Source: Candidatus Cloacimonadales bacterium
Lineage (GTDB): Bacteria; Cloacimonadota; Cloacimonadia; Cloacimonadales; JAIOQZ01
Length of the DNA: 64,000 nucleotides
Direction: 5' to 3'
Assembly: GCA_963674825.1 (NCBI GenBank)
Contig: OY771587.1
Coordinates: 1,888,001 to 1,952,000 of the forward strand
The notes below the pieces were generated by a model. It had not been told where the DNA came from. It ran no database searches and saw only the letters and a list, made by a program, of their open reading frames with translations. Within the stretch, counting starts at the first letter, position 1. Each line of letters starts with the position of its first letter. This document shows positions 25,077-61,810 of this stretch, in pieces. The translations under genes were made by a program, and so were the position numbers.

Positions 25077-26359
25077 ATGATACCCGAAACAGTCAATATT
25101 CCAGTGCTTTTGACGCTGGGCTTCGTGATCGTTGCCGGATTCTATCTTGGCAGGAACATGAAATGGATCAAGATGCCGGCGCTGATCGGTTACATGATTC
25201 TTGGCGTACTGTTGGGACCATCGCTATTCAATCTTCTCCCGTTTGCATTACAGGATAAGCTCGAATTCATCACCAACATCGCGCTGAGCTTCGTCGCGAT
25301 CAGTATCGGTCTGGAAATGAAATACTCAGCGCTTAAGAAGTTGGGTGCCGGTATTCTCTGGATCATCCTTTTCGAGTGCGTAGGCGCATTCGTCATCGTT
25401 TTTGCTGTGCTGTACCCGCTGACAGGTGACCTTGTCTTGTCGCTGATCTTCGCATCGATCGCGCCAGCGAGCGCACCGGCAGGTACCGTCGCTGTCATTG
25501 AAGAATACAAAGCAAAGGGTAGCCTTACCAAAGCGCTTTATGCGGTTGTCGGTCTGGATGACGGTGTGGGAATCATTATCTTCGGTTTCACCGCGTCGAT
25601 CTGCCGTACTCTTCTTGTGAGAGAGGCTGGTGGTGGAGAAATCGATGTCATGATGTTGCTTTTTGAGCCATTCAAAGAGGTGGTTCTGAGCTTTCTGATC
25701 GGTGGAGCGCTTGGCTGGCTCTTCTCCATCATGGCTCGTCGCCTGAAAACCGCCGGAGACGTGTTGATTCTCCTGTTTGGATTTATGTTCATGTCTGCCG
25801 GACTGTGCGAATGGCTTGGTCTCTCTGTGATTCTGACCAACATGGTCGTTGGCGCGATTGTGGTCAACACTCAGCCGCATTCACTGGTCAGCAAAATCTA
25901 CGATCGTCTTCCGATGATCATGCCACTATTGTTCCTGCTATTCTTTACGCTTGGAGGTGCAAACCTTCAGGTGCGCCAACTCCCAGCGCTGGGTGTTCTC
26001 GGTATCGTCTATCTGCTGGCACGTAGTGCAGGGCTTATCGGTGGTGCGTATTTCGGAGGCATGGCCGGGAAGGTCGAAGAGAAGATTAAAAAATACCTTG
26101 GTCTGGGCATCCTTGCGCAGGCTGGTGTAGCGATCGGTCTTTCGCTAGTTATAAAAAACGACTTCGCCAACCTCGGTGGCATGGTTCCCGGCTGAACGGC
26201 GAGATGATCAAGCATGGTGCGCTGATCGGTCAATCGGTCATTACGACGATTACAGCAACAAGTGTGATCTTCGGTATTATCGGCCCGATCCTGGCTAAAA
26301 TCGCGCTTCAAAAAGCTGGTGAAATCACATACGATCCCTACAAATCACAGGATAAATAA
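25077..26359 (+). pseudogene. CPA2 cation:proton antiporter, frameshifted near 26190
   Basis: The ORF stops at 26195, but the -1 frame continues LNGEMIKHGALIGQSVITTITATSVIFGIIGPILAKIALQKAGEI..* to 26359, aligning with the C-terminus of the next paralogue. Confidence 0.8.
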
Positions 26360-26363
26360 GTTT

Positions 26364-26406
26364 GGAGCTTCCGACTAAGCGATCTGCTGAAAGGAAGCTC
26401 ATTTTT
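26364..26406 (+). terminator. Hairpin with T-tract between the antiporter paralogues
   Basis: GAGCTTCC...GGAAGCTC followed by attttt. Confidence 0.5.
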
Positions 26407-26433
26407 AACAAGATAATCGAAAAAGGACGGTAG

Positions 26434-27699
26434 ATGCTACATCTTGATCTTTCAACGTTCGTAATTATCGGTATCGTAATCATCGTTGCATATCATGCAG
26501 GCAAGAATATCCGCTATCTGAAGTTACCGTCTCTGATCGGATATATGATACTTGGGGTGCTCCTGGGGCCGTCGTTACTGAACATCCTCACAGAGTCTGT
26601 GCAGCACCACCTCAGCTTCATTACCGAGATCGCGCTCAGTTTCGTTGCCGTGAGTATCGGACTTGAACTGAAATTCTCAAGCCTGAAGAAGCTGGGCATG
26701 GGTATCATCTGGATCATCCTGATGGAATCGTTCGGCGCGTTTATTATCGTTTTTACCGGACTGTACCTATTCACAGGCGATCTTCCCCTAGCGCTGGTCT
26801 TCGGTGCGATAGCACCGGCGAGTGCTCCGGCCGGAACCGTGGCGGTCATCCAGGAATACCGTGCTCGTGGTAGCCTTACCAAGACGCTCTATGCGGTTGT
26901 CGGGTTCGACGATGGCCTCGGAATCATCATCTTCGGTTTTGCGGCCTCATTCGCGAGGATGATCCTTGATCGTGAGGGCGGCGCTGATGATATCGGGTTG
27001 ATGCAATTGCTCATGAGTCCGGTGATGGAAATCGCGTTCAGCATCCTGGTTGGTATCGCGGCAGGTTGGCTCTTCGCCATCATGTCAAGACGTCTTAAGA
27101 ATCCCACCGATGTGATGCTGCTCCTGTTCGGATATGTATTTCTTTCCACTGGTCTTTGCGAAATGCTGCATCTTTCAGTGATCCTGACCAATATGATACT
27201 CGGAATGTTGATCGTCAACACCCAGCAACACGCGCTGGTACAGAAGATTCACGATCGTCTTCCCTTGATCATGCCTCTTCTATTTCTGCTGTTTTTTACG
27301 CTCGCAGGCGCGCATCTTCACCTTTCCAACCTTCCTGCGCTTGGATTACTGGGAATCGTTTATATTATCCTGCGCACTGCTGGACTGATGGGCGGTTCGT
27401 ACCTGGGCGGTTATCTGGGTAAGGTGGAAAAGAAAATCCGAAACTACACCGGTATGGGTATCCTCTCGCAGGCAGGTGTGGCGATCGGTCTAGCGCTGAT
27501 TGTCAAACACGAATTTACTCACGTCGGAAAGATGGTTGAGACAGCATCCGGAGAAATGACACGTGGTGCGCACATCGGAGCAATCGTCATCACCACCGTC
27601 ACCGCGACCTGCATCTTCTTCGAGATTATCGGCCCCATCCTGACACGAATCGCACTTACTAAGGCCGGAGAGATACCGACTGATGCCAGTGACGATTGA
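26434..27699 (+). CDS. CPA2 cation:proton antiporter
   Basis: GYMILGVLLGPS, APASAPAGT, VVGFDD, SQAGVAIGL, EIIGP; about 12 TM helices. Confidence 0.9.
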   Translation: MLHLDLSTFVIIGIVIIVAYHAGKNIRYLKLPSLIGYMILGVLLGPSLLNILTESVQHHLSFITEIALSFVAVSIGLELKFSSLKKLGMGIIWIILMESFGAFIIVFTGLYLFTGDLPLALVFGAIAPASAPAGTVAVIQEYRARGSLTKTLYAVVGFDDGLGIIIFGFAASFARMILDREGGADDIGLMQLLMSPVMEIAFSILVGIAAGWLFAIMSRRLKNPTDVMLLLFGYVFLSTGLCEMLHLSVILTNMILGMLIVNTQQHALVQKIHDRLPLIMPLLFLLFFTLAGAHLHLSNLPALGLLGIVYIILRTAGLMGGSYLGGYLGKVEKKIRNYTGMGILSQAGVAIGLALIVKHEFTHVGKMVETASGEMTRGAHIGAIVITTVTATCIFFEIIGPILTRIALTKAGEIPTDASDD

Positions 27700-33267: not shown

Positions 33268-34125
33268 TTATGAAGTTGTAATATATTTGATATCAGCGAT
33301 TTCGGGCTTATCTAAAGAAACGATTATAATGCAAAGATCATCAGAATCGGTAGCTGCCTGAAAACTCCAGCTCGAATCGGTCTGCTGTTTCCAGCTTCCG
33401 GTAAGGCGGGTAGATTCGTGGACATGCCCGTGGAACGTGATCCTGGGCTGTTTCTGCTGGATGAATTCCTGGATCGCGATGCTCCCGACGTGGACATCCA
33501 TCGGAACGTAATCGACCATCTGGCCATCGAGCGGAGCGCGATCGAGACAGGTTTTGTAGGGTGGGCTGTGGAAGATCATCACTGCGCGCTCCGGCTGGAA
33601 ATCGTGCGTCAGTTTCTGCAGGTCGTCTTTGATCGTTCCATAACGAACCTCTACTGGATTGACCTCGATCGTTCTGCTGCCTTCTTCCGGAGAAACGCAT
33701 CCCGGATCAACATAGCGCGAGACGTCGTACTTCTCCCAGTCTTTAGACCGGAAAGGGGTAGGTGGGACGAAGCTGTAGCCGTAGATGTCGAACGACTCTC
33801 GAACAATCTTTCGCATGTGTGCGTAGGTCCAGAGACCACGGTTCTCCAGCTCGATGATATCTGGCTCGTTGATACGGGGATCATCGTTTCCGAGGATGAC
33901 GAAGATATCCGGGTAGGAGCTGCCAAGAGTTCTTTTGAGCTGCGTGAGCGCTTCGCCGAGATAATCGAGGGTGAAATTATCTCCCTGATAGGGTGAATGC
34001 CAACCAGGTAAAAGGTCACCCGCGATTAATAGAACATCGGGTGAATCAAGCGCAATCGCGTTGAAAAGCGCTTCATATTTTGCCTGATTGCCATGTAGAT
34101 CGGACACACACCAGATTTTTGTCAT
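33268..34125 (-). CDS. Metallophosphoesterase (Icc-like)
   Basis: SDLHG, AGDL, GNDD, HSPP and HGHVHE. Confidence 0.88.
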   Translation of the reverse strand: MTKIWCVSDLHGNQAKYEALFNAIALDSPDVLLIAGDLLPGWHSPYQGDNFTLDYLGEALTQLKRTLGSSYPDIFVILGNDDPRINEPDIIELENRGLWTYAHMRKIVRESFDIYGYSFVPPTPFRSKDWEKYDVSRYVDPGCVSPEEGSRTIEVNPVEVRYGTIKDDLQKLTHDFQPERAVMIFHSPPYKTCLDRAPLDGQMVDYVPMDVHVGSIAIQEFIQQKQPRITFHGHVHESTRLTGSWKQQTDSSWSFQAATDSDDLCIIIVSLDKPEIADIKYITTS

Positions 34126-34309
34126 GTAGTCGCTCCTATAATAATTGGGGTCATATATCGTAGTTGAGTGTATGACGTCAATAAATGATTATGGTGTTGA
34201 AATTTGCGCAGTGTTTGTAGAAATCTCTTCATATATCGGAAAGAAAGAATTCGAGTAAAATATAGATAACCTTTTGAAAGATAAAGGATTGGGAAAGATT
34301 AACTCCGAA

Positions 34310-34324
34310 TGGCACGATACTTGT
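34310..34324 (+). promoter_or_regulatory. Sigma54 promoter variant TGGCAC-GATAC-TTGT
   Basis: One base from the TGGCAC-N5-TTGC consensus; IHF-like site (one mismatch) at 34267-34279. Confidence 0.7.
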
Positions 34325-34335
34325 TAATACATATA

Positions 34336-34545
34336 ACGTCGTGATTTTGATATCACGTTTCGTAGCAAAATTTTGGTCTGGGCAAGACCTAATTAGAGGG
34401 GCAGCGGAAACTCTTCACCCCGGTTCCTACCTGCCCCTCTCGACTATATATAAAACGATTCCGGTCAGGCGTGAGACACCTTCCAGGGTGTAGTCATCGT
34501 TATTCCACTCTCCCCCAGATAGGATGCTTGACCGGTTCTTTTTCT
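34336..34545 (+). ncRNA. Candidate structured small RNA, ~210 nt
   Basis: Follows the sigma54 motif. Hairpins: CGTGAT/ATCACG, GGTCT/AGACC, AGAGGGGCAG/CTGCCCCTCT, and CCGGTCAGGCGT/ATGCTTGACCGG (two G-U pairs) followed by TTCTTTTTCT. Confidence 0.55.
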
Positions 34546-36571
34546 ATTCTGATTGATCCCCACGATTCAATATCTTATCGCGGTACTCCTGATAAGCAGG
34601 ATAATCGATATCAGGATCTACACGCTCGAAGAGCTTCTTTGCGCGATTACGCTTGCCATCCTCATACAGCTTGATCCCGATATCCACCAGTGATTTCTGG
34701 AAGAAAGCGCTATCGTCTCCATCTTCGATTTCCATCATGGTGCGAAATGCATTTTCGGGATGGTTCATCGAAATATGTGTTCGAGCCAGGTTGGCTGCCG
34801 CGTCAGCGAATCCAGGCGATAATTCAAGCTGCCGTTTATAAAGCCCAAGCGCTTGCTGAAGTCTGCCGGTTCTTCCAGCGGCGGCAGCGTAGTTGTTGAT
34901 GAGACTGATATTGGTTGAGATGGCACGATAGGCCTGCTGGTAGTCATCGTAAGCCTTGCGGAAGTCACCTTTGAGAAAATACTGCCCAGCACGATAAGAC
35001 AGCGCTGCCATACAATCGGGCGTTACATTGTATAGCAATAGATTGATGGCGGTTACTTCGTTGATTATTTCATTTTGTTGTTTTCCGACAAGCCCACCGG
35101 CTCGAGCTCGGGTTATCTTACCATCCCGCATATCCTGCTTGATTTCTTCGATGCGGTCAACCCCCATCATTGCTCGTTTCAGGTGGATATTCCCGTTGAG
35201 CCGTGTGAAGAATACAATGAATGAAATCAATAGTGCCAGAATCATGATCCAGATAACGAATCCAGGAAGCGATCGGGGCGATTTCTTTGTCTTGGGTTTG
35301 GGAAGTCCGGCATACAGCGCTGATATCGAAGCAAGATAAAAGATAAACATGCTGCTGTGAAATACCCGTTCACGCGGAAAGCTGAAGAAGGACACGGACA
35401 TGAATCCTGCGACGCCAAGGCCTATCAGTAGCGCTTGGGAAGATGGTTCGCCATCTTTATCACTCAGCATGATACGGAATACATAAAGCCAAAAGAATAC
35501 GAAGATCGAAAGGAAGGCAAGTGCTCCAGGAATACCGTATTCGGAAGCGATCCAGAGATAATCGTTATGTGGCCGGATATAATAAACAAATCCCTTTTCC
35601 TGCATGATCGGTTCGGGCCTGTAGGTATGCTGAAACAAGCGCCAGTTGCCACCACCAAAGCCGGTCAATGGCCGGTCGGCGATCATATCCAGGCTTCTGC
35701 GCCAGGCGCGGAGACGCACCTGCACGCTGCTTCCACCGATGATCTTTTTGCCTGCGAAGTCGTCGCCGAGGTACTGTTGATACAGCTCGAACGTAATGAA
35801 GCCAGCCGCCAGAAACAGTACGGCGATGATGACCAGGCGGATGATCCGCTTTCGCGGGAACAATTCCCGCATGAGCGGTTTCTTGCGGTTGAACAAGCCT
35901 GCGGTTACACTGAAGATAATTGCCAGCCCCATCGCGACCCACACCGAACGCGTACGGAGTGCGGTCATCATGAAGAACGATATGCTCAGCGCTTTCAGCC
36001 CAAGGAAATGCCAGAATCCTTTTTCCCGAAAGAAGGTGGAGAGGTTCAGCGGTAACAGCAGGAATAGAGCGGAAGCGAGCAGGTTGCGATTGGTGAAGAG
36101 CGCGTGGATGTCCTCGATACCGGGGATGATGAAAAACGTCTGGAAGAAGAACTGAATAAGCCCGATCGCGCATAAAAAAAGCGTTACGATCGTAGCAAAT
36201 CTTCTTGCTGGGATTAATGGCGATTGCTGTTGGCGGAATCCGGTATAAAGCAGGAGGAATAACCCCAAATTCATGATATCGCGACAGACCCAATAAAACC
36301 ACTCGGCACGATTATAGGCCATGATGCCCGATAACAGAGAGAAGATTACCATTGCGAAAAGTGACAGCAAGATGCCGTTCCGCATCTCCGATAGCGGTAT
36401 ATTCTGCTTGCTTTTCAACATCATTGCGAGGTATGCCAGGATGATTCCACCCGATAAAACAACCAGTCTCAACGGTGTTACCGAATCGACGGCGACCGGA
36501 TAGAAGATGAATGGGATAACGCAGAATAGTATGGTCAGGATAATGTATTGAGATACCGGAAACTGTTTCAT
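34544..36571 (-). CDS. O-antigen ligase (Wzy_C) family membrane protein with C-terminal TPR region
   Basis: Multiple TM helices; FTNRNLLA, TRSVW, R..AW....MIADRPLTGFGGGNW, PHNDYL...SEYGI; TPR-like tail. Confidence 0.85.
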   Translation of the reverse strand: MKQFPVSQYIILTILFCVIPFIFYPVAVDSVTPLRLVVLSGGIILAYLAMMLKSKQNIPLSEMRNGILLSLFAMVIFSLLSGIMAYNRAEWFYWVCRDIMNLGLFLLLYTGFRQQQSPLIPARRFATIVTLFLCAIGLIQFFFQTFFIIPGIEDIHALFTNRNLLASALFLLLPLNLSTFFREKGFWHFLGLKALSISFFMMTALRTRSVWVAMGLAIIFSVTAGLFNRKKPLMRELFPRKRIIRLVIIAVLFLAAGFITFELYQQYLGDDFAGKKIIGGSSVQVRLRAWRRSLDMIADRPLTGFGGGNWRLFQHTYRPEPIMQEKGFVYYIRPHNDYLWIASEYGIPGALAFLSIFVFFWLYVFRIMLSDKDGEPSSQALLIGLGVAGFMSVSFFSFPRERVFHSSMFIFYLASISALYAGLPKPKTKKSPRSLPGFVIWIMILALLISFIVFFTRLNGNIHLKRAMMGVDRIEEIKQDMRDGKITRARAGGLVGKQQNEIINEVTAINLLLYNVTPDCMAALSYRAGQYFLKGDFRKAYDDYQQAYRAISTNISLINNYAAAAGRTGRLQQALGLYKRQLELSPGFADAAANLARTHISMNHPENAFRTMMEIEDGDDSAFFQKSLVDIGIKLYEDGKRNRAKKLFERVDPDIDYPAYQEYRDKILNRGDQSE

Positions 36572-36713
36572 GAGGCCATCCTTTTCTATGGTACGACGAA
36601 TACAGTATTTCAAACGGAGCCTGTCAATAAAAACGATATCAACCTGTTAATCTTCTTCGAGAAATGGATAATGAAGTGCGATTCATTCAGAAAAATCAGG
36701 ATCGATTGCCATC

Positions 36714-36848: not shown

Positions 36849-39800
36849 CTACTTGAGAAGGATCATCTTTTTGGTAGCGGTATAGCGTCCGGCCTTCATT
36901 TTGTAGAAGTAAATACCGGAGCCAACCTTCTTGCTGTGATCATCTTCACCAGCCCATACCAGATTATACTCGCCTCTGTCAAGTCTTTCATTAACGAGGG
37001 TTTTCACTTTCTGTCCCTTGACATTATAGATGTCGATCTGGACGTCAGCATCCTCTGCGATCGAGAAGGCGATATTGGTTTCCGGGTTGAACGGATTGGG
37101 GAAGTTGCCACCGAGTTGGGTTACCAGTTCGGGAGCGTTGGGATCATTACCGTTACCTTGACCGGTAGCGGCAATGGTGATCACGGTTTCATTGAGATAC
37201 GGATCGTTGGATGTAATTACGATCTCGCCATTATAGCTGCCTTCAACTTCAGGAGCGAAGACGAGCGTAAAGGTCTGATAACCCTGCTCGTTAACGGAGA
37301 ACGTGTAGTTCTCGCGAGTAGTGGTCATCTTCGAACCCTTGTTGTTGCGAATCAGCTGTGTACCGCCAATCGTGAAGCCGTCGTAGGTTTCGATGTTACC
37401 GTTGAGCGTGGTATTACCGTAGTTGAAGATCGTGAATTCGAGCGTTGCCGATTCGTTGACCATCACGGTACCGAAATCGAGTTCGGCATCGGAAAGCGAG
37501 ATAATCGGGGTCGGATCAGCCGGTGCGGCCGGGAACTGGATGTAATCAATCCAGGCCTTGTCGTATCCGCTGCTCTGCGAGCTATCCTTGTCGTAGGTCC
37601 AGGAGAGGAGGTGGTAGCCGGTCGTGATGGGATAGCTTACCATTGCCCAGTTCTGGATACCGGACCAGGAGTCGATTGGTTCGCCATCGATTTTGAAGAT
37701 AAGGAAGTCGTAGCCAACTTCGCTGGAGACTTTACGGAAGAACGAGATATCGCCGTCTGCAGCGATATCGACGTTTATCGACGCTGTTGTGTACTGGCTA
37801 TGGGAGATCGCGCCAGAAGCGAGGCAATAGTTGCCTTCATAAGCGTCGGCCTGATTCAGTACCCATTGTTCTCCACCGGAGAATAACCAATCGAACTGCT
37901 CGAGGCCGTTTTCGAAGTCTTCATTCACGATGGATACAGTTGCGGGGTATGTCATCTGGACACAGTACATATCGCTGGTATAGCCAAATCCAAGCATGAT
38001 CGAAGTGTCTTCCGGAAGATCTTCAGACAGTGTAACGACGAAAGTCGGCTGGATGTCGTCTTCAGGATCGATCGGATCGGTTTCAACTGTACCTTCACTG
38101 ATGGTGATATAAGGGTTGTTGCAAACGAGCGTAGCGATTCCTTCCGGAGCTATCGCGTGACCGTTGTTGTAAACGGTGAATTTAAGCGCTGCGGTTTCGC
38201 CCGGGTCGAGCATGCCGTTACTGTTACCAGACGGATCGAACACATCCATTTCGCCAAGTGCGAATGACGGTGCGTTGACCGTGATGGTTTTCTCGGCCTC
38301 GAATGTCTGCTCTTCGTTGCCGGAATTGGTGCAAGTAACGGTCACAGCGAAATTGAGTTCGTACTGATCCGGGATATTACCTGCGATCTGGATGGCAAAC
38401 GCGTCATCGAGCACAACTTCACCTTCGCTGTCGATCGAAGCGACGGTTTCTGTGTCATCGGAAACGGTGACATACTGATCGTCGATCGCGATGGTTACGC
38501 TGACATCGGTAGCGTCGTCTGAACCGACATTATTCAGCGTCATGCCAAGCAGCATGCTGTCGCCGTAATCCGGTTCGTTATTGTCGCCATCATTGTATGA
38601 GAAATCGCTCATGACGATATAGGAACCTTCGTTCGGAAGAAGCGAGATCGTCTCGATATAGGTTACCTTGTTATAGCCGGTAACGGTGAGTGTCAGGTCA
38701 GTCGGTTCCTGGGGAACGTTTTCAAGGTTGAGCATAACGTTTCCGTTGGCATCGGTATAGCCAGCGCCAAGGGTTTCGCCTGCGTTTGAAAGACAGACCA
38801 TCGCGTTCGGGATGTCTGTATCAACTTCGAATTGCGATACGCCGATAAGCAGTTCGCCTGGATGGGAAATGACGAATTCTTCCGGAGTGTCGGTGCGCAC
38901 CTGCAGCGACGCGTCGCCGAAGATGTGCCAGGTCATGAACATTTTCACGCCGTCACTGCCATAGTTGTCTAACATGGAGCAAGAACCGTTGTAATAGAGA
39001 CCACCGGTGAGATTTTTCTCTTCGTTGGTCAGAAGGATCACATATTCATCCTGTGATTCCATGGGCGGAGCCCATGATTGATTCACAGACGATGCGTACA
39101 TCGCGATAGCGCCTGTGGGAGCGCCGTTAGAGTTGTTCATGGCACGAAGCCAGGCTTCTGCGAAGCAAGTAGTGTTGGTGAAGTTACCGTTCACGCATGC
39201 AACAGAAGAGATGAACGGAAGCATGTAATCGTTGGTCAGCGCGTTGACATGGCTGTTTGAGAAGCCAGTCGAGACCCAGGAAGTATTTGAGCCATGGCCA
39301 CAGTACATGACTTCGCCGCGTCCTTCGTTGAGCGCGTTGCTGACCATCGAGGAGTTTCCGCCGTTGTTGTCGTAAATTTGGTCGATTTCAGTGTAAGTGT
39401 AATTAAGGAACTGGTTGCGAAAGTTGCCGATGTGTACGTAGTCGGCTTCGCCTTCATCGCCCTGGCCTGAGCCCTGGCTGGAAGCGATACCGGTACCCTT
39501 ATGGAGCCATTCGCCATCTACGATATCACGTTCGTAATAAATTGTGCGTTCAACCTGGGTTTCCACCTGGATTTCAGTCTCTGCCGAGAAACGGCCGACA
39601 AAGATATCCGGGTAGTTGTCATTACCTTCGAGAAGGCTGTAGGAAGGATCGGAGCCACCTGATTCATAGGAGCTGATCGAGTAGATGAAGGTAGGAATCT
39701 GGGCGGCGTCGCCAACAAGCTGTACAAAAGTCAGGTCGCCTGCATCATATACGTCCTGGATGTAGTCAAGCACGTCGTCTTCGTCTGTGCCAACTTCGCT

Positions 39801-40595
39801 CATCGCAACTACATTAACGTTGAATCCTTTCTGGATCTTCCAGTCAACGTAAGGCTGGATTTCTTCAAGGAAGTCGTCGTAGCAGATCACAAGGATGTTT
39901 CCCTGTTCTTCCACTGCATCATAACGCGGCTCGGTGAAGTTAATGAACTGGCCGGCGTAAATGTTGGTGAAGTAGGGGTTCATGCCTGCATGGGTGCGGA
40001 TCTTGACGTTGCGGTCGTCCGTACCGATGCGATTGATCTGGATGGTCATGCTGTGGTAAACACGGAGCGTCTGGGTCACGGGATTGTAGGCAAACGGATA
40101 GGCATTGACTACGGTACCGCGAATGTCGCGCATGATATACGGTTCACCGAGTGAAACCAGCGACTTGGGATAGAATGCATCCTGCTGATATACCGTTGAA
40201 AATGTGTAGGGGACGGTATTCGGGTCAATCGCACGAGAGATGAATCCGCGAGAAGGAGCGACAGCCATCTGGTAGTCGGTATATTCGCTGTTTACGACAG
40301 TTGCTTCCATACGCGCGTCATCGCCGATAACGATGCTGCGAGTAATTTTCGGAAGCTCTGGTTCGCCGGCTGTGTAGGTGTGGCTCTCAGTTTCGAGGCC
40401 CAGCCGATACATTGTCTGACCGTCGATTTCGACAGCCTGGCGATCAAACGAGCCGAAGCTGTATTCAATCACCACTTGCTGCTCGTTCGATGAAACGACA
40501 TTAACATCAAACGAACGATGGTCGATCTTGATGTTTTCTGCTGCAAGACCAAGCGCGAGCAGCAGCACCAAAACCAATGACATACCTTTCTTCAT
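36849..40595 (-). CDS. C25 cysteine peptidase, Arg-gingipain-like, with propeptide, Ig modules and FlgD-Ig/CTD
   Basis: QLVGD, VGRFSAE, GIAS.QG, catalytic YCGHGS and SVACVNGNF; tail NFPNPFNPET...GIYFYKM..KKMILLK. Confidence 0.9.
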   Translation of the reverse strand: MKKGMSLVLVLLLALGLAAENIKIDHRSFDVNVVSSNEQQVVIEYSFGSFDRQAVEIDGQTMYRLGLETESHTYTAGEPELPKITRSIVIGDDARMEATVVNSEYTDYQMAVAPSRGFISRAIDPNTVPYTFSTVYQQDAFYPKSLVSLGEPYIMRDIRGTVVNAYPFAYNPVTQTLRVYHSMTIQINRIGTDDRNVKIRTHAGMNPYFTNIYAGQFINFTEPRYDAVEEQGNILVICYDDFLEEIQPYVDWKIQKGFNVNVVAMSEVGTDEDDVLDYIQDVYDAGDLTFVQLVGDAAQIPTFIYSISSYESGGSDPSYSLLEGNDNYPDIFVGRFSAETEIQVETQVERTIYYERDIVDGEWLHKGTGIASSQGSGQGDEGEADYVHIGNFRNQFLNYTYTEIDQIYDNNGGNSSMVSNALNEGRGEVMYCGHGSNTSWVSTGFSNSHVNALTNDYMLPFISSVACVNGNFTNTTCFAEAWLRAMNNSNGAPTGAIAMYASSVNQSWAPPMESQDEYVILLTNEEKNLTGGLYYNGSCSMLDNYGSDGVKMFMTWHIFGDASLQVRTDTPEEFVISHPGELLIGVSQFEVDTDIPNAMVCLSNAGETLGAGYTDANGNVMLNLENVPQEPTDLTLTVTGYNKVTYIETISLLPNEGSYIVMSDFSYNDGDNNEPDYGDSMLLGMTLNNVGSDDATDVSVTIAIDDQYVTVSDDTETVASIDSEGEVVLDDAFAIQIAGNIPDQYELNFAVTVTCTNSGNEEQTFEAEKTITVNAPSFALGEMDVFDPSGNSNGMLDPGETAALKFTVYNNGHAIAPEGIATLVCNNPYITISEGTVETDPIDPEDDIQPTFVVTLSEDLPEDTSIMLGFGYTSDMYCVQMTYPATVSIVNEDFENGLEQFDWLFSGGEQWVLNQADAYEGNYCLASGAISHSQYTTASINVDIAADGDISFFRKVSSEVGYDFLIFKIDGEPIDSWSGIQNWAMVSYPITTGYHLLSWTYDKDSSQSSGYDKAWIDYIQFPAAPADPTPIISLSDAELDFGTVMVNESATLEFTIFNYGNTTLNGNIETYDGFTIGGTQLIRNNKGSKMTTTRENYTFSVNEQGYQTFTLVFAPEVEGSYNGEIVITSNDPYLNETVITIAATGQGNGNDPNAPELVTQLGGNFPNPFNPETNIAFSIAEDADVQIDIYNVKGQKVKTLVNERLDRGEYNLVWAGEDDHSKKVGSGIYFYKMKAGRYTATKKMILLK

Positions 40596-40612
40596 AGTAC
40601 CTCCAAAGGTAG

Positions 40613-40636
40613 GTGCCCGTCCCGAAGGACGAGCAC
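40613..40636 (-). other. cUUCGg tetraloop hairpin between the two protease genes
   Basis: Minus strand reads GTGCTCGTCC-TTCG-GGACGGGCAC, just upstream of the GGAGG RBS. Confidence 0.7.
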
Positions 40637-40656
40637 TTGTTTTTTTATGTTCAGTT

Positions 40657-43600
40657 CTATTTTATCAACAGCATTTTCTTCACAGATACGTAGCTTCCGG
40701 TCTTCATCTTGTAGAAGTACACACCGCTACCTACCTGGCGATTCTGGCCATCCTTGCCTTCCCAGACGATCGAGTGCGGACCAGCCTGCATCTCTTCGGA
40801 GACGAGTGTCTTTACTTTCTGTCCGAGGATGTTGAAGACCTCGATCTGAACATCGCTCTTCTCAGCAAGGCTGAAGGAGATGGTGGTTGTAGGATTGAAC
40901 GGGTTGGGATAGTTTCCCTTGAGTTCGTTCACGAATGCAGGAATATCGTTACCGTTTGTTCCCTGAGCGTCAGCGGTTGCGCTGATATCGATTGAAGCAT
41001 TCAGGGCATACGGGTCGTTGCTGGTCAGAAGGATCTGTCCACTATAGTCGCCTTCTTCGGTGGGCATATACTTCAGGGTGAAGGTATAGCTTCCGGCAGC
41101 GGGGACTATATAGTCATAGGTTTCACGAGAAGTTCTTGAGCCTCTGGCTGAACGTGTCTGACGCTCTGCGCCGAGAACGGTGAATCCGTCGTATGTGGTG
41201 ATAGTGCCTTCCATGTCGGTGTTACCGTAATTATACAGTATTACATCGTACATCAGGCTGTCGCCGACGATAACTTCGCCGAAATCGATTTCTTCATCGC
41301 TAGCCATGAAGATCGGAACCGGAGCTGAAGGAATCGACGGGAAGATAATGTAGTCGATCCAGGCACAGTCGCTGCCGTTGCTGACCGAGTTATCTTTGTC
41401 GTAGGTCCATGCGAAAGTATGGAAACCGGGCTCGACGGGGAAGGACGCCTGCGTCCAGTTGATTGTACCTGACCACTGTTCCTGCATTTCATTGTCGATG
41501 TAGAATTGCAGGAAGTCGTAGTTAGCTTCACTGGATACACGGTAAGAGAAAGCGATCTCTCCACCAGAGACAACGGTGACAGCGATCTGGGCAGTGGTTG
41601 ACTGGTTGTCGGAGATATCGCCCGATACGAGGCTATAGGTGCCTTCGTAAACGCTATTGGTGGTGAGCTCCCAGTCCGCGTTTCCTTCCATACCCCAACC
41701 ATAGAGGTCCAGGCCGTTTTCGAAGTCTTCGGTCATTTCGGAGACGGTCACGCCGTAGGTGATCTGGAATTCGTATTCACCGGCGAATATGCCGAAGCCG
41801 AGGTTGATGTCGGTTCCTTCAGGAACGTCTTCGGAGAGCGAAACGATGAATGTCGCGTCTTCGGTGTCTTCAGCGTCGATTTCACCAAGTTCGTCGGAGT
41901 TTTCGTCGATGGTGATGTATGGGTTGGTGCAGATCAGCATCGCGACAACTTCTGGAGAGTCTGCGTGGCCATAGTTGGTGACGGGGAAGCTGATCGCGGT
42001 GGTTTCACCTGGGTCGAGCTGTCCGTTATTGTTACCGGACGCGTCAAATACCGACATTTCGCCGATGGAGAATGCAGGCGCGTTCACGGTGATGTCTTTG
42101 TTGATTTCCCAGGTCTGCTCGGAGCCGTTAACGGTTCCGAAGATCGAGATCGAAAATTCGATGATGTGCTGATCGGGTGCGTTGCCGGCAACTTCAATTG
42201 TGAATGCGTCTTCGAGCGTGATGGCTTCGTTTGAATCGATGCTGTCGAAGAGCTCTTCGCCGTCGGTAATCGTGACATAAGCGTCTTCGCTGGTGAGGGT
42301 CACAGTAAGGTCGGTTGCTTCGTCGGTGCCAACGTTTGTCACCGGCAATCCGAGTGTGGCGGTTTCCGCAAATTGCGGCAGGCCGTCGTTTCCATCGGTG
42401 TAGATGAGGTCATCTGCTACCAGATACGCGCCGTCACTGGGAACGATCTGAACAGTGGTGATAATCGGCTGGCGATTCTGAGCGGTGATAACAAGGTTTG
42501 CATCGCCAGGAACGGTGAAAGGTTCGAGATCGAGTGTAAGCGAGCCGCTGTCGCCAACAAGGCCCATGCCGTAAGTCTCGCCATTCATGGTGAGGCTTAC
42601 TAATGAATACGGGTCGGCTGTGACTTCGTATTCAGTCATGCCGATGAGGATCTGAGCTGCGAAATCGGCTTCGTTTTCAATCGGAACACCCATGTACGGG
42701 GTGAGTGACGGTTCGCCCATCAGCGAGTAGATTTCCCAGTAATAACTGGAGCTTCCACCGCCTTCGACAACTGCGAGGTTACCGCACATGATCATGGCAC
42801 CAGCAGTGACAAACCAGTCTTCTTCGGTTTCGCCGTTATCGTGGAACAGTCCGTCATAAGTACCCCGACCGGTAGATTCGTAAGTCGGGTTGCTTACAAT
42901 GCTACCAGCTCCAACACCCCACCAGTAGTCTTCGTCCCAGTAGGTACTGTTGGTGCCGCCAATGTAGCCGACAGCGCCCTTGTCTTCAGCGCGAAGCCAG
43001 GCTTCGCCGAAGCACGTGGTTACTTCAAATTTGTTGGTAAGACAGCAGTTACCTACAACCATCGGGTACTTGTCTTCATTGTCCAGACCATTGATGTCCG
43101 AGATGGTGAAGGACGGATCGGCCCAGGATGTCGAGCTTCCGTGCGCTGTGTAGTTTACGTATCCGACGCCATTGCTGACGTTGGCGATAATGTTGTTGGA
43201 GTTGCTACCCGAATTCGGATAGAGATAAGTGTGAGATTCGATATCGTGATCTTCGTTGAAGTAGTATGTTGTGCCATAGTTGATCTGGCCATTACCCCAG
43301 GTGGATCCGTGAGAGGAGTCCATACCGGCGATCATGACAACTTCGCCCAGATAGCTGGGATCGGGCATTTCATACTTTTCGAACATGAGGGTCTTATCGA
43401 TCTGCGGCTGAAGTTCGGATGTGCTGTTGGCAGAGAAACGGCCATAGTACATCTCGGGGAAGAAGTCGGTGCCATCAAGCTTGACATAGTTGAGGTCAGT
43501 CACGTGGCTTCCGGTGGAACCATTGTAAGCCGGGATCTGCGGAGTATCGCCCACGAAAAGGACAAACGACGGAGCCGGGTCTGTCGGTGTACCTTCATCG

Positions 43601-44469
43601 TAGAGGTCTTGCAGGAAGTTGTGGATGAGGGATGTGGTGGTTCCGGTTTCGTCGGTACTAGCGGCGATAACGGTGAAGCCCATTTCTTCCTTCCATTCGA
43701 TGAACGGAGCAAGCTGTTCTTCGAACATGTCGTCGTAGATCACCACGTATTTCACGGGATACTGAGTCAGTTCATCGCGATTCTGCAGCGGCTGGTAGTT
43801 CAGGATGGAACTGCTGAATACGGGTTCGAAGTAGTGCGAGTAGGTTCTTTCCAGCTGGTAGCGGGTTTCGACGTAGTTTGCACCGGTGAAGTTCACAGAC
43901 ACGTTGACGTCGGAATAGACACGGATCATGTTCGTGGCGGGATTGTAGTCAACCGGACGAACAGTAAGCTGGAAGAGGCGCATTCCACGCATGACACCCA
44001 GCTCTTCGACGCTTGCCAGCTCCGGATACTGCCAGCTTGCAGAAGCGTATGCATCTTGATCGATGACGAATTCAACGTCTTCGATGCGTTCGCTTTTAGA
44101 GAGAGAGGGCTGTGCAGGGATAAGCTGGCTTTCAAGGGCAAGCTCCTGTACCTGACCTGTCGTGACGTTGAGATTGACATTCGCTCCGAAGGGAACAGCG
44201 ATGATTTCGCGGTTCAGCGGGAGACGCGGTTGGCCGGGTTCGGTCACATATTCAAAGTCATTTGCGGTCAAGACCGTGAAATTGCCTCCACGTGTCTGAG
44301 TCGCGCTGGTCTCGAGGCCTGAAATGTGGAAACGGGCTTCGAAGCCGGACTGGCTGTTACTTGTTAGTTCAACGGCAGCGCTTGCCGTATCGCTGTTGAT
44401 GGGATGATAGGTTGCAAATAATGACATGGTTAGAGCGCTCAAAAGCACGAGCGTCAAGATGCGTTTCAT
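40657..44469 (-). CDS. C25 cysteine peptidase, Lys-gingipain-like, with propeptide, Ig modules and FlgD-Ig/CTD
   Basis: FPEMYYGRFSA, GQINYG..YYFN, NYTAHGS.TSWADP, GNCC, YW.EDY.W (Kgp-type motifs); NYPNPFNP tail. Confidence 0.9.
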   Translation of the reverse strand: MKRILTLVLLSALTMSLFATYHPINSDTASAAVELTSNSQSGFEARFHISGLETSATQTRGGNFTVLTANDFEYVTEPGQPRLPLNREIIAVPFGANVNLNVTTGQVQELALESQLIPAQPSLSKSERIEDVEFVIDQDAYASASWQYPELASVEELGVMRGMRLFQLTVRPVDYNPATNMIRVYSDVNVSVNFTGANYVETRYQLERTYSHYFEPVFSSSILNYQPLQNRDELTQYPVKYVVIYDDMFEEQLAPFIEWKEEMGFTVIAASTDETGTTTSLIHNFLQDLYDEGTPTDPAPSFVLFVGDTPQIPAYNGSTGSHVTDLNYVKLDGTDFFPEMYYGRFSANSTSELQPQIDKTLMFEKYEMPDPSYLGEVVMIAGMDSSHGSTWGNGQINYGTTYYFNEDHDIESHTYLYPNSGSNSNNIIANVSNGVGYVNYTAHGSSTSWADPSFTISDINGLDNEDKYPMVVGNCCLTNKFEVTTCFGEAWLRAEDKGAVGYIGGTNSTYWDEDYWWGVGAGSIVSNPTYESTGRGTYDGLFHDNGETEEDWFVTAGAMIMCGNLAVVEGGGSSSYYWEIYSLMGEPSLTPYMGVPIENEADFAAQILIGMTEYEVTADPYSLVSLTMNGETYGMGLVGDSGSLTLDLEPFTVPGDANLVITAQNRQPIITTVQIVPSDGAYLVADDLIYTDGNDGLPQFAETATLGLPVTNVGTDEATDLTVTLTSEDAYVTITDGEELFDSIDSNEAITLEDAFTIEVAGNAPDQHIIEFSISIFGTVNGSEQTWEINKDITVNAPAFSIGEMSVFDASGNNNGQLDPGETTAISFPVTNYGHADSPEVVAMLICTNPYITIDENSDELGEIDAEDTEDATFIVSLSEDVPEGTDINLGFGIFAGEYEFQITYGVTVSEMTEDFENGLDLYGWGMEGNADWELTTNSVYEGTYSLVSGDISDNQSTTAQIAVTVVSGGEIAFSYRVSSEANYDFLQFYIDNEMQEQWSGTINWTQASFPVEPGFHTFAWTYDKDNSVSNGSDCAWIDYIIFPSIPSAPVPIFMASDEEIDFGEVIVGDSLMYDVILYNYGNTDMEGTITTYDGFTVLGAERQTRSARGSRTSRETYDYIVPAAGSYTFTLKYMPTEEGDYSGQILLTSNDPYALNASIDISATADAQGTNGNDIPAFVNELKGNYPNPFNPTTTISFSLAEKSDVQIEVFNILGQKVKTLVSEEMQAGPHSIVWEGKDGQNRQVGSGVYFYKMKTGSYVSVKKMLLIK

Positions 44470-45134: not shown

Positions 45135-45699
45135 TCTGCTGCCGATTATAGCGGTAGCACTTCTATTGTCTTGCAATGCCTTCTCTCCTAGAGATTCGGA
45201 AGAGCCGCAGTCCGGTTCCGAATGGAACTCGTTTCCAATACAGCCGGAGCAGACGCTGGAGAACCTCGAATACGCCTACGAGTATAGCCAGAACAGCATC
45301 AAATACGGCGAAATTTTCGCCGATGGGTTCTCTTTTTTCTTTGACACACAAGATATAAGCGATTATGGTGTTCCTGAAGCGTGGGATTCTGAAACGGAAG
45401 AAGAAATGCTGCTTCTTTTATACAATCACCTTCTTTCGGGAACTGTTATAAGCTTGGAGCTGACGCCGGTAGAAAGCGAACCAGACGACATCCAGAGCGA
45501 GACAGCCGAGTTTTACAGAGAATATCAGTTGAGCATTGACCACGATCTCGAGGACTTACCGGATACTTTCGGTGGAATGATGTATCTCGAGATTGTGAGA
45601 AACCAGGATGGATTTTGGAGAATATCCAAATGGCAGGACTACAGAACGGACCAAGAAACGGTTACATGGGGGAGGTTGAAATATGAAATTTCACCCTAG
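45082..45699 (+). CDS. Lipoprotein, NTF2-like fold suspected; start uncertain and non-canonical
   Basis: The signal KRIHNLLPIIAVALLLSC lies upstream of the track's TTG at 45166; PEQTLENLEYAY resembles the neighbouring gene. Confidence 0.7.
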   Translation: MKKKLQWTKKTRTKRIHNLLPIIAVALLLSCNAFSPRDSEEPQSGSEWNSFPIQPEQTLENLEYAYEYSQNSIKYGEIFADGFSFFFDTQDISDYGVPEAWDSETEEEMLLLLYNHLLSGTVISLELTPVESEPDDIQSETAEFYREYQLSIDHDLEDLPDTFGGMMYLEIVRNQDGFWRISKWQDYRTDQETVTWGRLKYEISP

Positions 45700-46273
45700 T
45701 TTCCTCGGGGGTGTAATCCTTGTTCTGTCAATTTTGTTTACAGTTGGATGCCAGAATCCATTTAATCCGGACATGCGTAAACAAATGGAGACAGTTCAAC
45801 CCTCGATTGCCGATTCTCCCGAGAAAGTTCTGACTAATCTCCAGCTTGCTTACAATACACAAGACATTGATCTTTACAAGCAATGCCTCTCCGAATCGTT
45901 TACCTTTGTTCTGGTCGCTTCCGAATCCACCGAACTGGGCCTGGATATGGACGGCGACGGTATCCGCGACGATTGGTGGGGCTATGATGAAGAAGTACTT
46001 TACCACGAAAATTTATTCGTATATGGCTCCAGCGACGGCAGAACGCCACCGCCTTATAACATTTCGCTGAGCCTCCAGGTACCGCCGGATTCTCTCTGGA
46101 ACTACACACAGACGGAAGATGATGGTTATTACCTTATCGTTCCCTGTTATTTCGATCTTCGGCTCAGTTTCGAGACCTCGGAGATCATCGCCAATGGCTA
46201 TGCACGATTCTTTCTGACCGAAGAGGATGAAGTGTGGAAAATCATCCGCTGGCAGGACGAATCGAATATATAG
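45683..46273 (+). CDS. Lipoprotein, paralogous to the upstream gene
   Basis: Lipobox TVGC-QNPF; PEKVLTNLQLAY...WKIIRWQD. Confidence 0.75.
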   Translation: MKFHPSFLGGVILVLSILFTVGCQNPFNPDMRKQMETVQPSIADSPEKVLTNLQLAYNTQDIDLYKQCLSESFTFVLVASESTELGLDMDGDGIRDDWWGYDEEVLYHENLFVYGSSDGRTPPPYNISLSLQVPPDSLWNYTQTEDDGYYLIVPCYFDLRLSFETSEIIANGYARFFLTEEDEVWKIIRWQDESNI

Positions 46274-51692: not shown

Positions 51693-53438
51693 CTATTTCA
51701 GTAGCATTGCCTTGACCGTGCTACTTTCTTCGGCAGTATTCATACGGATGAGGTAGGTTCCGTTCGAGACATTTTTTCCTGACTGATCCGTCCCATCCCA
51801 TGTCACGCGATGCTCACCGTCGCTCATCAATTGGTTCACGAGAGAACGAACTTTCTGACCGCGAATATTGAACACGGCAACTTCCACATGTCCGGCCATT
51901 CTTAAGGAGAAGCTGATCGTTGTGTTTGGATTGAACGGGTTCGGATAGATGCTGTTAATCCCTGTAATATAGGTTACGTCTGGAGATTCTTCCTGTTCTT
52001 GTTCATCCGAAGTAAGTGTTACCGATACAGGACCGAAAAACTCGGAATGTCCGTCGAGCTCGACGCTTTCAAGCCAGTAATTGTAGGTTGTCTCGGTCTC
52101 AACATCCGAATCGACGTAGCTGTAGATGTTTTGCGACGATGAATTGTGCGGAGAGACGTAGTTCAGGTTGATTTTCGTCGCTTCTTCGAGTTCATCGCTC
52201 TGGTTGCGATAAATGTTGTACCCAATGAGGTCGCATTCGGACTCGGTCTGCCACTCGATCTGAACGAACGAACTGGCAGTTACGGATGCGGTAAAAGACG
52301 AGAGTTCGACTGGGAGTGAACCGTCATAGAAAGTGAACATAAGTATGATAGAAGGATAACCATCATTCATCTCACTGCTGATCATCCAGTAATCGTCAGA
52401 GCCGTTATCGCTTTCATAGACGAAATCCCAGCCGACGGCCGTGTACATATTGGGAAGGTCGTACGATTCGGTCGTCATCTGTGCGGTTGTTTTGCCAAGT
52501 ACAGTGCCTTCCGAGCTTGTTGCCTGAGATGTATCCATGTCCCAGAAACAGCCCATGATTGTTCCACCGCTGTCTTTTCCGCAGAAGCCATAGCTGTCTT
52601 GAATAGTAGAGTTAACGGTTACGGTACCTGTAGAATAGCAGTTCAAGATGAATGTATCATTGTCTCCCACAAATCCACCGATTTTCAGGAGATCGGGTAT
52701 TGTATTCTCGCAAGAGGCATTGCCCATGCTGTAACAATTGCGGATTAAGCCTGAATTCCATCCGACAAATCCACCAGCGCTGCCTTCCTCGGAATGCACT
52801 GCAACATCCGAGTTCGAAAGCTCAGTCAGGCCATCGTTCATACCAACGAGTCCACCAAGCATCCCGCCGATTCCGTTAACGGAGCCCATGCTGCTACAAT
52901 ACGATACGGTTCCGCCATTGTAACCGACGATGCCACCACCGCATTCGGTATTTACCATGACAGATCCCATCGTAATCACATGGTCGATAAATCCCAGAGA
53001 TGTACCGGCGACACAACCGATGTTGCTTCCGCCCGAAATATCGCAATTAATGATAAACAGTTGCTCGACTCTTGCTGTGGGTGAAAGCACGCCAAACAGC
53101 CCTGCGTTACCGGCTTCACCTGTGTTGCAATACAGATCGAAAATCCCGCAACCCCAGCCGTAATAGGTTCCCGTGAACTGCTCCATGAAGTATCCTATCG
53201 GGCTCCAGCCACTGCCTTCGTTCCATTCAGTGATTTCTGCAGGGAAAGTGATGTCGTTGATCTGTGCGAAGTGCTTGTCCCATGAGGTCGGATTTTCGGA
53301 TATCCACCACAGGTTTTGCCATGATGTGACGATGTACGGATTTCCGGCGGTTCCTCCGCCAATTGGTTGTATGGCTGTTTGAGCCATGATGATCATTGTA
53401 CTCACGAGAAATAATACGAAAAGCAGTCCCTTTTTCAT
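51693..53438 (-). CDS. Secreted GLUG-repeat protein with LPVELSSF module and FlgD-Ig/CTD
   Basis: G.GT..NPY.V, repeated GG.VG.N motifs, LPVELSSFTA, IYPNPFNP...KAMLLK. Confidence 0.85.
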   Translation of the reverse strand: MKKGLLFVLFLVSTMIIMAQTAIQPIGGGTAGNPYIVTSWQNLWWISENPTSWDKHFAQINDITFPAEITEWNEGSGWSPIGYFMEQFTGTYYGWGCGIFDLYCNTGEAGNAGLFGVLSPTARVEQLFIINCDISGGSNIGCVAGTSLGFIDHVITMGSVMVNTECGGGIVGYNGGTVSYCSSMGSVNGIGGMLGGLVGMNDGLTELSNSDVAVHSEEGSAGGFVGWNSGLIRNCYSMGNASCENTIPDLLKIGGFVGDNDTFILNCYSTGTVTVNSTIQDSYGFCGKDSGGTIMGCFWDMDTSQATSSEGTVLGKTTAQMTTESYDLPNMYTAVGWDFVYESDNGSDDYWMISSEMNDGYPSIILMFTFYDGSLPVELSSFTASVTASSFVQIEWQTESECDLIGYNIYRNQSDELEEATKINLNYVSPHNSSSQNIYSYVDSDVETETTYNYWLESVELDGHSEFFGPVSVTLTSDEQEQEESPDVTYITGINSIYPNPFNPNTTISFSLRMAGHVEVAVFNIRGQKVRSLVNQLMSDGEHRVTWDGTDQSGKNVSNGTYLIRMNTAEESSTVKAMLLK

Positions 53439-53512: not shown

Positions 53513-53527
53513 ACAATTATGGTGCCA
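53513..53527 (-). promoter_or_regulatory. Sigma54 promoter variant TGGCAC-CATAA-TTGT
   Basis: GG-N10-GT, 75 bp upstream of the 53438 start; IHF-like TATCAG-TTCT-TTA at 53534-53546. Confidence 0.72.
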
Positions 53528-61697: not shown

Positions 61698-61713
61698 AGT
61701 TGCTCCTATGTTT

Positions 61714-61810
61714 TCTCACCCCATCCCTCTCCCATTGCTGGGCGAGAGAATGGTAAGGTTGAGGTTTTTTTAGTTCCCCCGACCATTTACGGAAGAGGGT
61801 TGGGGTGAGA
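61714..61810. repeat. BoxC-like intergenic inverted repeat
   Basis: TCTCACCCCATCCCTCTCCC (61714-61733) and GGAAGAGGGTTGGGGTGAGA (61791-61810) are complementary at 18/20 positions. Confidence 0.7.

Follow-up and report, generated by a model that had tools for sequence, protein, structure and literature searches.

The 64,000-nt window of a Candidatus Cloacimonadales bacterium genome analyzed here contains, between a divergent metallophosphoesterase gene (33268..34125, minus strand; Pfam Metallophos) and a convergent O-antigen-ligase/TPR gene (34544..36613, minus strand; Pfam Wzy_C plus TPR), an element that, judged by its pattern of conservation, is a conserved noncoding gene. The element is single-copy in the host genome and is, with high probability, transcribed into an RNA. 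Our preferred reading, which we consider on balance probable, is that it encodes a stand-alone, signal-induced and Hfq-independent trans-acting sRNA whose C-rich loops pair with G-rich ribosome-binding regions. A sigma54-transcribed small RNA had been proposed in this gap, and a sequence check confirmed all coordinates given for the element in that original prediction.

Homologs, for which the original prediction had suggested a BLAST search of relatives, were found by blastn and a covariance model in all three other genomes of the genus (G001–G003; this genome is G000) and in none of four other genomes of the family. Enhancer, promoter and RNA recur at fixed spacing in these three genomes, and a pattern combining the promoter with one of the RNA hairpins (P2) matched 4 of 232 genomes of the phylum, all of this genus. 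The core segments are 69–100% invariant, far above the 17% of four-fold codon sites (30 of 174 sites in three ortholog sets), indicating that the core is under strong selection; none of 24 columns is invariant in the region downstream of the element. Outside the genus, blastn searches in 41 genomes gave four matches of 24–36 nt, which had no support from the covariance model (best E 0.16). The model matched 7 of 151 genomes of the order; the three matches outside the genus (∼22 bits) were rejected on inspection, as they carry no sigma54 motif in the 120 nt upstream and one of them looks tRNA-like. Relaxed promoter patterns gave zero and one matches in five genomes outside the genus, and the single one, which had no model match, was discarded. 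Scans with exact patterns gave three matches in genome contigs, with the pattern of loop 3 (see below), and none in the metagenome or viral contigs searched, and loci beside phosphoesterase orthologs contained no match to the element. Contigs from three sequencing runs are without differences to the window, two of these runs possibly being its own source.

The sigma54 −24/−12 promoter of the original prediction (TGGCAC-GATAC-TTGT, 34310..34324, plus strand) is present as claimed and is kept as TGGCAC-N5-TTGT in all four genomes, with 10 of 15 columns invariant. Judging from their placement, sigma54 motifs are genuinely used in this genome: of 23 TGGCAY-N5-TTGC sites, 13 lie between genes, as do 4 of 15 TGGCAY-N5-TTGT sites, in a genome with 8.6% intergenic DNA, and spacings other than N5 show little enrichment with either tail. 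Genome searches identified one RpoN gene and 23 strong plus one weak sigma54 activator domains, and a Pfam search two HU/IHF-family genes. The −12 element of the sRNA promoter is TTGT, TTGC being the commoner form, and two further TTGT-type sites lie upstream of protein genes in the host. Within the window, a second TGGCAC-N5-TTGT promoter was noted at 53513-53527 (minus strand), 89 nt upstream of a gene (51693-53438) for a 581-aa GLUG/FlgD-Ig secreted protein. Genome-wide we observed ∼30 sigma54-like promoters between genes, many of which have the GGAAY form; from N-terminal sequences, we take the genes behind them to include flgB, fliD, pilin-like genes and many large secreted-protein genes.

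Upstream of the promoter, conservation at fixed spacing points to a putative tandem enhancer (UAS) for a sigma54 activator (34195..34231, plus strand), which lies outside the interval originally described (34261..34545) and was not mentioned there. It consists of two 16-bp imperfect palindromes of TGT-N10-NCA shape (34195-34210 and 34216-34231), 21 bp apart, which we take to resemble the TGT-N10-ACA class of activator sites, as for NifA. Relative to TGGCAC, the four genomes have the first half-site at −115, −114, −112 and −115, and the tandem is the best-conserved upstream feature; the spacer downstream of it diverges, with 8 of 78 columns between enhancer and promoter invariant. Scored with a matrix that was trained on the same sites, the tandem reaches 37.3 and the next site in the genome 18.4. 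A matrix scan found no second tandem in this genome, and the RNA may therefore be the main output of its activator. The best single half-site (14.4), at the flgB promoter, was considered as a further regulon member and rejected, since it lies inside upstream coding sequence. No activator gene adjoins the element; across the four genomes, the distances to the nearest activator domain are about 16, 12, 100 and 140 kb. The IHF-like site that had been proposed upstream of the promoter is weak. In this genome, the AT-rich spacer contains two overlapping one-mismatch matches to the IHF consensus (34256..34279); the site is weakly conserved, with only two- to three-mismatch matches in the relatives.

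From the spacing to the −12 element, the predicted small RNA would start at 34336 and span ∼208 nt (34336..34543, plus strand); cut in this way, it is 188–234 nt long in the four genomes. The plus strand folds at −70 kcal/mol (z −3.57, with 0 of 200 shuffles as good), and its z-score is better than that of the minus strand (−2.87 in this genome) in all four genomes. The hairpins and stems of the original prediction at 34340-34357, 34375-34389 and 34395-34440 are present as described. The first of these, the 5′ hairpin P1 (34340..34357), is predicted in all four genomes, weakly in G001, and is unconserved in sequence, with 2 of 35 columns of its region invariant. It is followed by a U-run and hairpin P2 (GGUCU-GGGCA-AGACC; 34371..34391), in which 20 of 21 columns are invariant, loop included, and which on this basis is a candidate protein- or tertiary-contact site. 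P3 (34395..34440; 34 of 46 columns invariant) is a long GC-rich stem, whose outer 10 bp pair 34395-34404 with 34431-34440, and an inner stem, which together display the C-rich loop 1, CUUCACCCC (34413-34421), within an invariant 17-mer (34409-34425). Except for its first base, loop 1 is unpaired with a probability of 0.98–1.0. P3 contains two compensatory and three G-U-keeping pairs.

After a variable linker (2 of 19 columns invariant), P4 (34461..34535) closes the 3′ domain. The 12-bp stem claimed here exists and includes two G-U pairs; conservation is confined to its outer 8–9 bp (34461-34469 with 34527-34535), with 9 of 9 columns invariant in the 5′ arm and 9 of 13 on the 3′ side. It encloses the 6-bp hairpin P5 (34476..34491), which folds in all four genomes with changed stem and loop sequences (7 of 24 columns invariant). 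Of the hairpin described with a CCUUCC loop, the hairpin is kept and the loop sequence differs in the relatives. P1 and P5 are thus hairpins kept with different sequences, each alone moderately beyond shuffles except P1 of G001. The segment UUAUUC..UCUCCCCCAGAUAG (34493..34523; 26 of 31 columns invariant) carries loop 3, CCCCC at 34512-34516, which is unpaired with a probability of 0.91–1.0 in all four genomes. The claimed U-tract after P4 is found as UUCUUUUU and marks the probable 3′ end (34536..34543), directly abutting the stop codon (34544-34546) of the convergent gene. All four genomes have a run of at least four U there on the plus strand; a U-run trails P4 on the minus strand in this genome alone. 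A simple scan recognized no terminator of the classical type, which is explained by the ∼60 nt that the last stem encloses.

The relatives agree with the earlier argument that G-U-only mismatches place the RNA on the plus strand. Six one-sided changes keep a standard pair on that strand, compared to two A-C mismatches that would favor the minus strand, and 95.7% of the cells in the consensus structure of the four sequences are paired. Covariation, for which the original prediction had proposed a test, is present as two pairs that change on both sides; it is weak and suggestive only, since just four related sequences are available, and the covariation score is equaled by 16 of 500 shuffles and the double changes by 92 of 500. 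No conserved ORF was found on either strand in the four genomes.

Rfam at gathering thresholds returned nothing across the window, and in E-value mode the element and its three relatives gave only chance-level, unrelated matches (E 0.2 and 4.6), as the original prediction of a novel RNA implied. ARAGORN detected no tRNA or tmRNA in the window and located tmRNA elsewhere in the genome; 6S RNA is found at G000:2400976, and, judged by sequence motifs, RNase P RNA and SRP RNA presumably also lie elsewhere. The statement that the element is not a tRNA, SRP, 6S, tmRNA or RNase P RNA therefore holds.

GlmY and Qrr are sigma54-dependent sRNAs under an enhancer-binding activator. NrsZ and CJnc230 are described in the same terms; none of these sRNAs has a sequence or model match to our element, which lacks repeated modules of the NrsZ type and, in three of four genomes, does not derive by processing from a co-oriented gene upstream of it. 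Pxr of Myxococcus xanthus is reported to follow a predicted sigma54 promoter and, further upstream, an enhancer region, and to have three stem-loops (PMC5684412), conserved and variable, of which the first contains an essential C in its loop. Our element resembles Pxr as a stand-alone structured sRNA with a sigma54 promoter and enhancer, both predicted from their conservation in all four genomes. It differs in having no Rfam match, in its ∼200 nt with five helices, in its phylum and in its flanks, which encode the phosphoesterase or a TPR protein, whereas Pxr has the activator gene pxrR/pxrK immediately upstream.

For the loops, the closest parallels are sX13 and 6C. The study of sX13 of Xanthomonas (PMC3771888) reports apical 4C/5C loops on stable stems and a predicted, Hfq-independent action on G-rich motifs near translation starts, and the C-runs of our element, unpaired at 0.91–1.0 in all four genomes, are likewise displayed in loops on stable stems. 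In contrast to sX13, to which no covariance-model match was found, the element is longer, contains an invariant hairpin without C-loop and a multibranched 3′ domain, and belongs to a host in which Hfq was not detected (0 of 21 genomes searched). 6C of Mycobacterium, whose host has neither Hfq nor ProQ, is reported to bind G-rich ribosome-binding sites by base pairing through two C-rich loops (PMC6486639). Our element has two C-rich loops as well, and ProQ was found in none of eight genomes searched. It is distinguished from 6C by the lack of an Rfam match, loops of four and five C with specific flanks, restriction to one genus and the sigma54 promoter. The alphaproteobacterial cuckoo RNAs have hairpins with anti-SD-like C/U loops (PMC4615179); none of the four sequences contains their CCUCCUCCC loop motif, and the loops of the element differ from each other. 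By these comparisons, the element is outside the Pxr, sX13, 6C, cuckoo, CsrB-type and housekeeping families; we regard it as a separate family, confined to this genus, of an already known kind of RNA, and by analogy its mode is most plausibly like that of sX13 and 6C, placed under a Pxr-like promoter.

We propose that one of the sigma54 activators of the host binds the tandem enhancer, 112–115 bp upstream, and opens the −24/−12 promoter, a step supported by the conserved sites. An RNA of ∼200 nt would then run from about 34336 to the U-tail after P4, and its rigid stems would present the C-rich loops CUUCACCCC and CCCCC, both invariant and unpaired. Without help from Hfq or ProQ, these loops would base-pair with ribosome-binding regions rich in G, thereby repressing the translation of several mRNAs in the manner of sX13 and 6C. 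The display of the loops is supported by structure, and from it we infer the repressive function. The 16S rRNA of the host has a standard anti-SD 3′ end, which loop 1 resembles, and SD-like sites lie upstream of 80% of modeled host genes. We favor chaperone-free pairing at ribosome-binding sites because the loops are unpaired in four of four genomes, because this is the mode of sX13 and 6C and because the promoter layout is Pxr-like. Against pairing as the full account, it does not explain the invariant P2, which is probably a protein-binding or stabilizing element.

Candidate targets were sought by scoring duplexes against 2831 crudely modeled starts, a screen without accessibility in which any C-rich seed scores on SD sites. 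Two top loop-1 matches were set aside as spurious ORFs, which presumably lie in 23S rRNA. Three top candidates, none of them established as a target, were followed into the relatives: a Ppx/GppA phosphatase gene, the gene of a 76-aa Cys-rich protein and a predicted lipoprotein gene at 45683 of the window (left out were 2887883, 2742029, 626349, 2729731, 2222106 and 465615). None of the three was both conserved as a target in all four genomes and free of confounds. The 76-aa protein gene (L059:2898-3195, plus strand) ranked first for loop 1 in one screen of modeled starts, and its distribution in the family equals that of the RNA (4/4 vs 0/4). Its pairing reaches −27.5, −22.4 and −23.0 in three genomes and −12.0 in G001, with shifts in register; the site lies inside a hairpin of the mRNA itself, and whole-molecule cofolding gives an MFE structure without the loop-1 duplex. 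The gene has a conserved sigma54-like promoter (GGAAY-N5-TTGCA) and a conserved 5′ UTR hairpin. Its product belongs to no family found in our searches and has two homologs; its Atlas neighbors are unnamed and mostly viral, with a weak lead to DUF4032.

The Ppx/GppA phosphatase gene pairs in three of four genomes, while G001 has a plain AAGGAGG site, and the 3′ letters of its G-rich ribosome-binding site track the loop-3 change between G000 and G002/G003, which is a single event. The gene at 45683 pairs with loop 3 in all four genomes (−20.8 to −27.7); its site overlaps upstream coding sequence, where it encodes the tail of that protein, and scores −20 in G006, a genome without the RNA. This region (45166-46273, plus strand) contains two overlapping predicted lipoprotein genes without a Pfam family, the second of which is present in all eight genomes of the family. 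Seed-pattern searches in the relatives, for which loci were listed for 30 of 71, 30 of 45 and 16 of 16 matches, gave no further shared target site among the matches listed.

GlmY and CrcZ are precedents for sRNAs that act as decoys or scaffolds, and the same sigma54-driven RNA could act mainly on a protein through P2 and its loops instead of by pairing with mRNAs, a reading that we regard as unlikely, though the most serious of the alternatives. Since both arms and the loop of P2 are invariant, sequence-specific recognition is suggested, no cleanly conserved mRNA target emerged, and CsrA is present in five of five genomes tested (G003 has two csrA copies of equal score, at G003:C3:7353 and G003:C4:59778, possibly an assembly duplication). 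The plus strand, however, carries only one or two GGA motifs, none at a conserved place, which argues against a CsrB/RsmZ-type sponge for CsrA, and the genomes searched yielded neither Hfq nor ProQ. Moreover, sponges usually carry a repeated motif, which the element lacks. Its C-runs in apical loops are the known pairing signature, as in 6C and sX13 (PMC6486639, PMC3771888). We consider it considerably less probable still that the element acts in cis, as leader or terminator of a flanking gene or as an operator array at the DNA level. It lies upstream of the phosphoesterase gene, on the minus strand, in G000, G001 and G003, the minus strand folds well and P4 could end a convergent transcript. 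In G002, however, the phosphoesterase gene is on another contig, so that its linkage to the element is not obligatory, and both neighboring genes are oriented into the element. A convergent gene follows the element in all four genomes and is a different one in each relative; with such variable flanks and both G002 neighbors pointing inwards, the element at G002 cannot be a leader on either strand. In addition, a complete promoter and enhancer are directed along the plus strand, the loops are as invariant as the stems and the G-U changes favor a plus-strand RNA. Least credible of all is a small protein product, whether encoded by the GTG ORF 34341-34493, by a frame starting with TTG at 34372 or by an ATG frame on the minus strand. 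The frame LVWARPI.GA..TLHPG is open in three relatives, and in all four genomes the minus strand has an ATG behind a G-rich, SD-like run. The reading frame of G000 is, however, put out of register with that of the other genomes by a 1-nt indel after P2, so that the GTG ORF is not the conserved product, in keeping with the original prediction, which had seen no convincing ORF. Starts, lengths and C-terminal sequences differ, the core is invariant at all three codon positions, and the minus-strand peptides are 10–30 aa long and dissimilar.

The top duplex matches also led to a dispersed repeat of the genus, which fits the published TMECO/BoxC consensus (PMC4666352). Loop 1 is complementary to CCG-GGGTGA of type B of these TMECO/BoxC/PIT intrastrand-triplex repeats. 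It is conceivable, if improbable, that the RNA is tied to the repeats, either because loop 1 derives from a repeat copy or because it pairs with the single-stranded G-rich tail of repeat transcripts. Strict copies number 18, 1, 28 and 63 in G000–G003 compared to 0–1 in the four other genomes of the family, where the sole match to the repeat pattern is a plain G-run. Between loop 1 and a long variant that carries an inserted hairpin, 12 nt match exactly (reached by 3 of 3000 shuffles, or by 28 of 3000 if the C-core is kept), and loop 1–repeat duplexes reach −18 to −31 kcal/mol. At L158:219-800, two copies flank a DUF559 gene, which this reading would possibly touch as well; no literature joining DUF559 with 'repetitive extragenic palindromic' was found. 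The match test was post hoc, however, the long variant is restricted to G000 (four copies, none in G001–G003), and with the common short form loop 1 has only 9 nt in common, which is close to chance (reached by 144 of 3000 shuffles, or by 899 of 3000 if the core is kept). In G001 the invariant loop is present beside a single strict repeat copy, and the copies show no bias to the transcribed strand (8 sense-sense and 10 anti-anti among 23). The covariance model has no match at repeat loci and, in contrast to the multicopy TMECO/BoxC/PIT repeats, the element is single-copy, has its own promoter and matches neither the hairpin-plus-tail consensus nor the repeat pattern. A shade more remote again, in our view, is an sRNA induced through sigma54 that obtained its guide loop from such repeats, or directs it at them, the repeats having spread together with DUF559 genes. 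If true, one RNA could address many repeat-bearing transcripts or restrain a repeat-nuclease cassette, and it would be the first RNA partner for the long-unexplained TMECO/BoxC repeats. A degenerate copy of this type was noted in the window at about 61700-61760 (minus strand).

Read as a trans-acting C-loop RNA, the element is a complete, cleanly bounded sRNA candidate from a host for which our searches detected neither Hfq nor ProQ, and our literature search, supplements aside (which may list Rfam-external ncRNA motifs), found no regulatory sRNA for Cloacimonadota. It extends the combination of a sigma54 promoter and enhancer, as in Pxr, with C-loops, as in sX13 and 6C, to another phylum and, as this pattern appears there without detectable homology, suggests repeated invention. 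The unique enhancer is a handle for the identity of the activator, and the two invariant loops are handles for mutation. The reach of the finding is limited by its restriction to one uncultured genus and the lack of a proven target.

A tracrRNA role for the element finds no support, as it forms no contiguous duplex with the 36-nt CRISPR repeat of this genome; a repeat-like stretch matching at 21 of 24 positions lies by the cas region, ∼73 kb from the element. The CRISPR array itself, at about 1995870-2002400 of G000:C1, contains 31 copies of a 24-mer of the 36-nt repeat and is accompanied by an ORF that we take to be Cas2-like. A repeat-like stretch upstream, separate from the array, could be the tracrRNA, and one spacer resembles the G-rich strand of the TMECO/BoxC-type repeat. 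Elsewhere in the window, 25077-27699 and 36849-44469 appear from their ORFs to be two tandem gene duplications. The former pair is presumably cation/proton-antiporter-like, and the latter encodes C25 gingipain-like peptidases with FlgD-Ig tails, an assignment that for the second copy has a profile basis and that agrees with a Cloacimonadales host.
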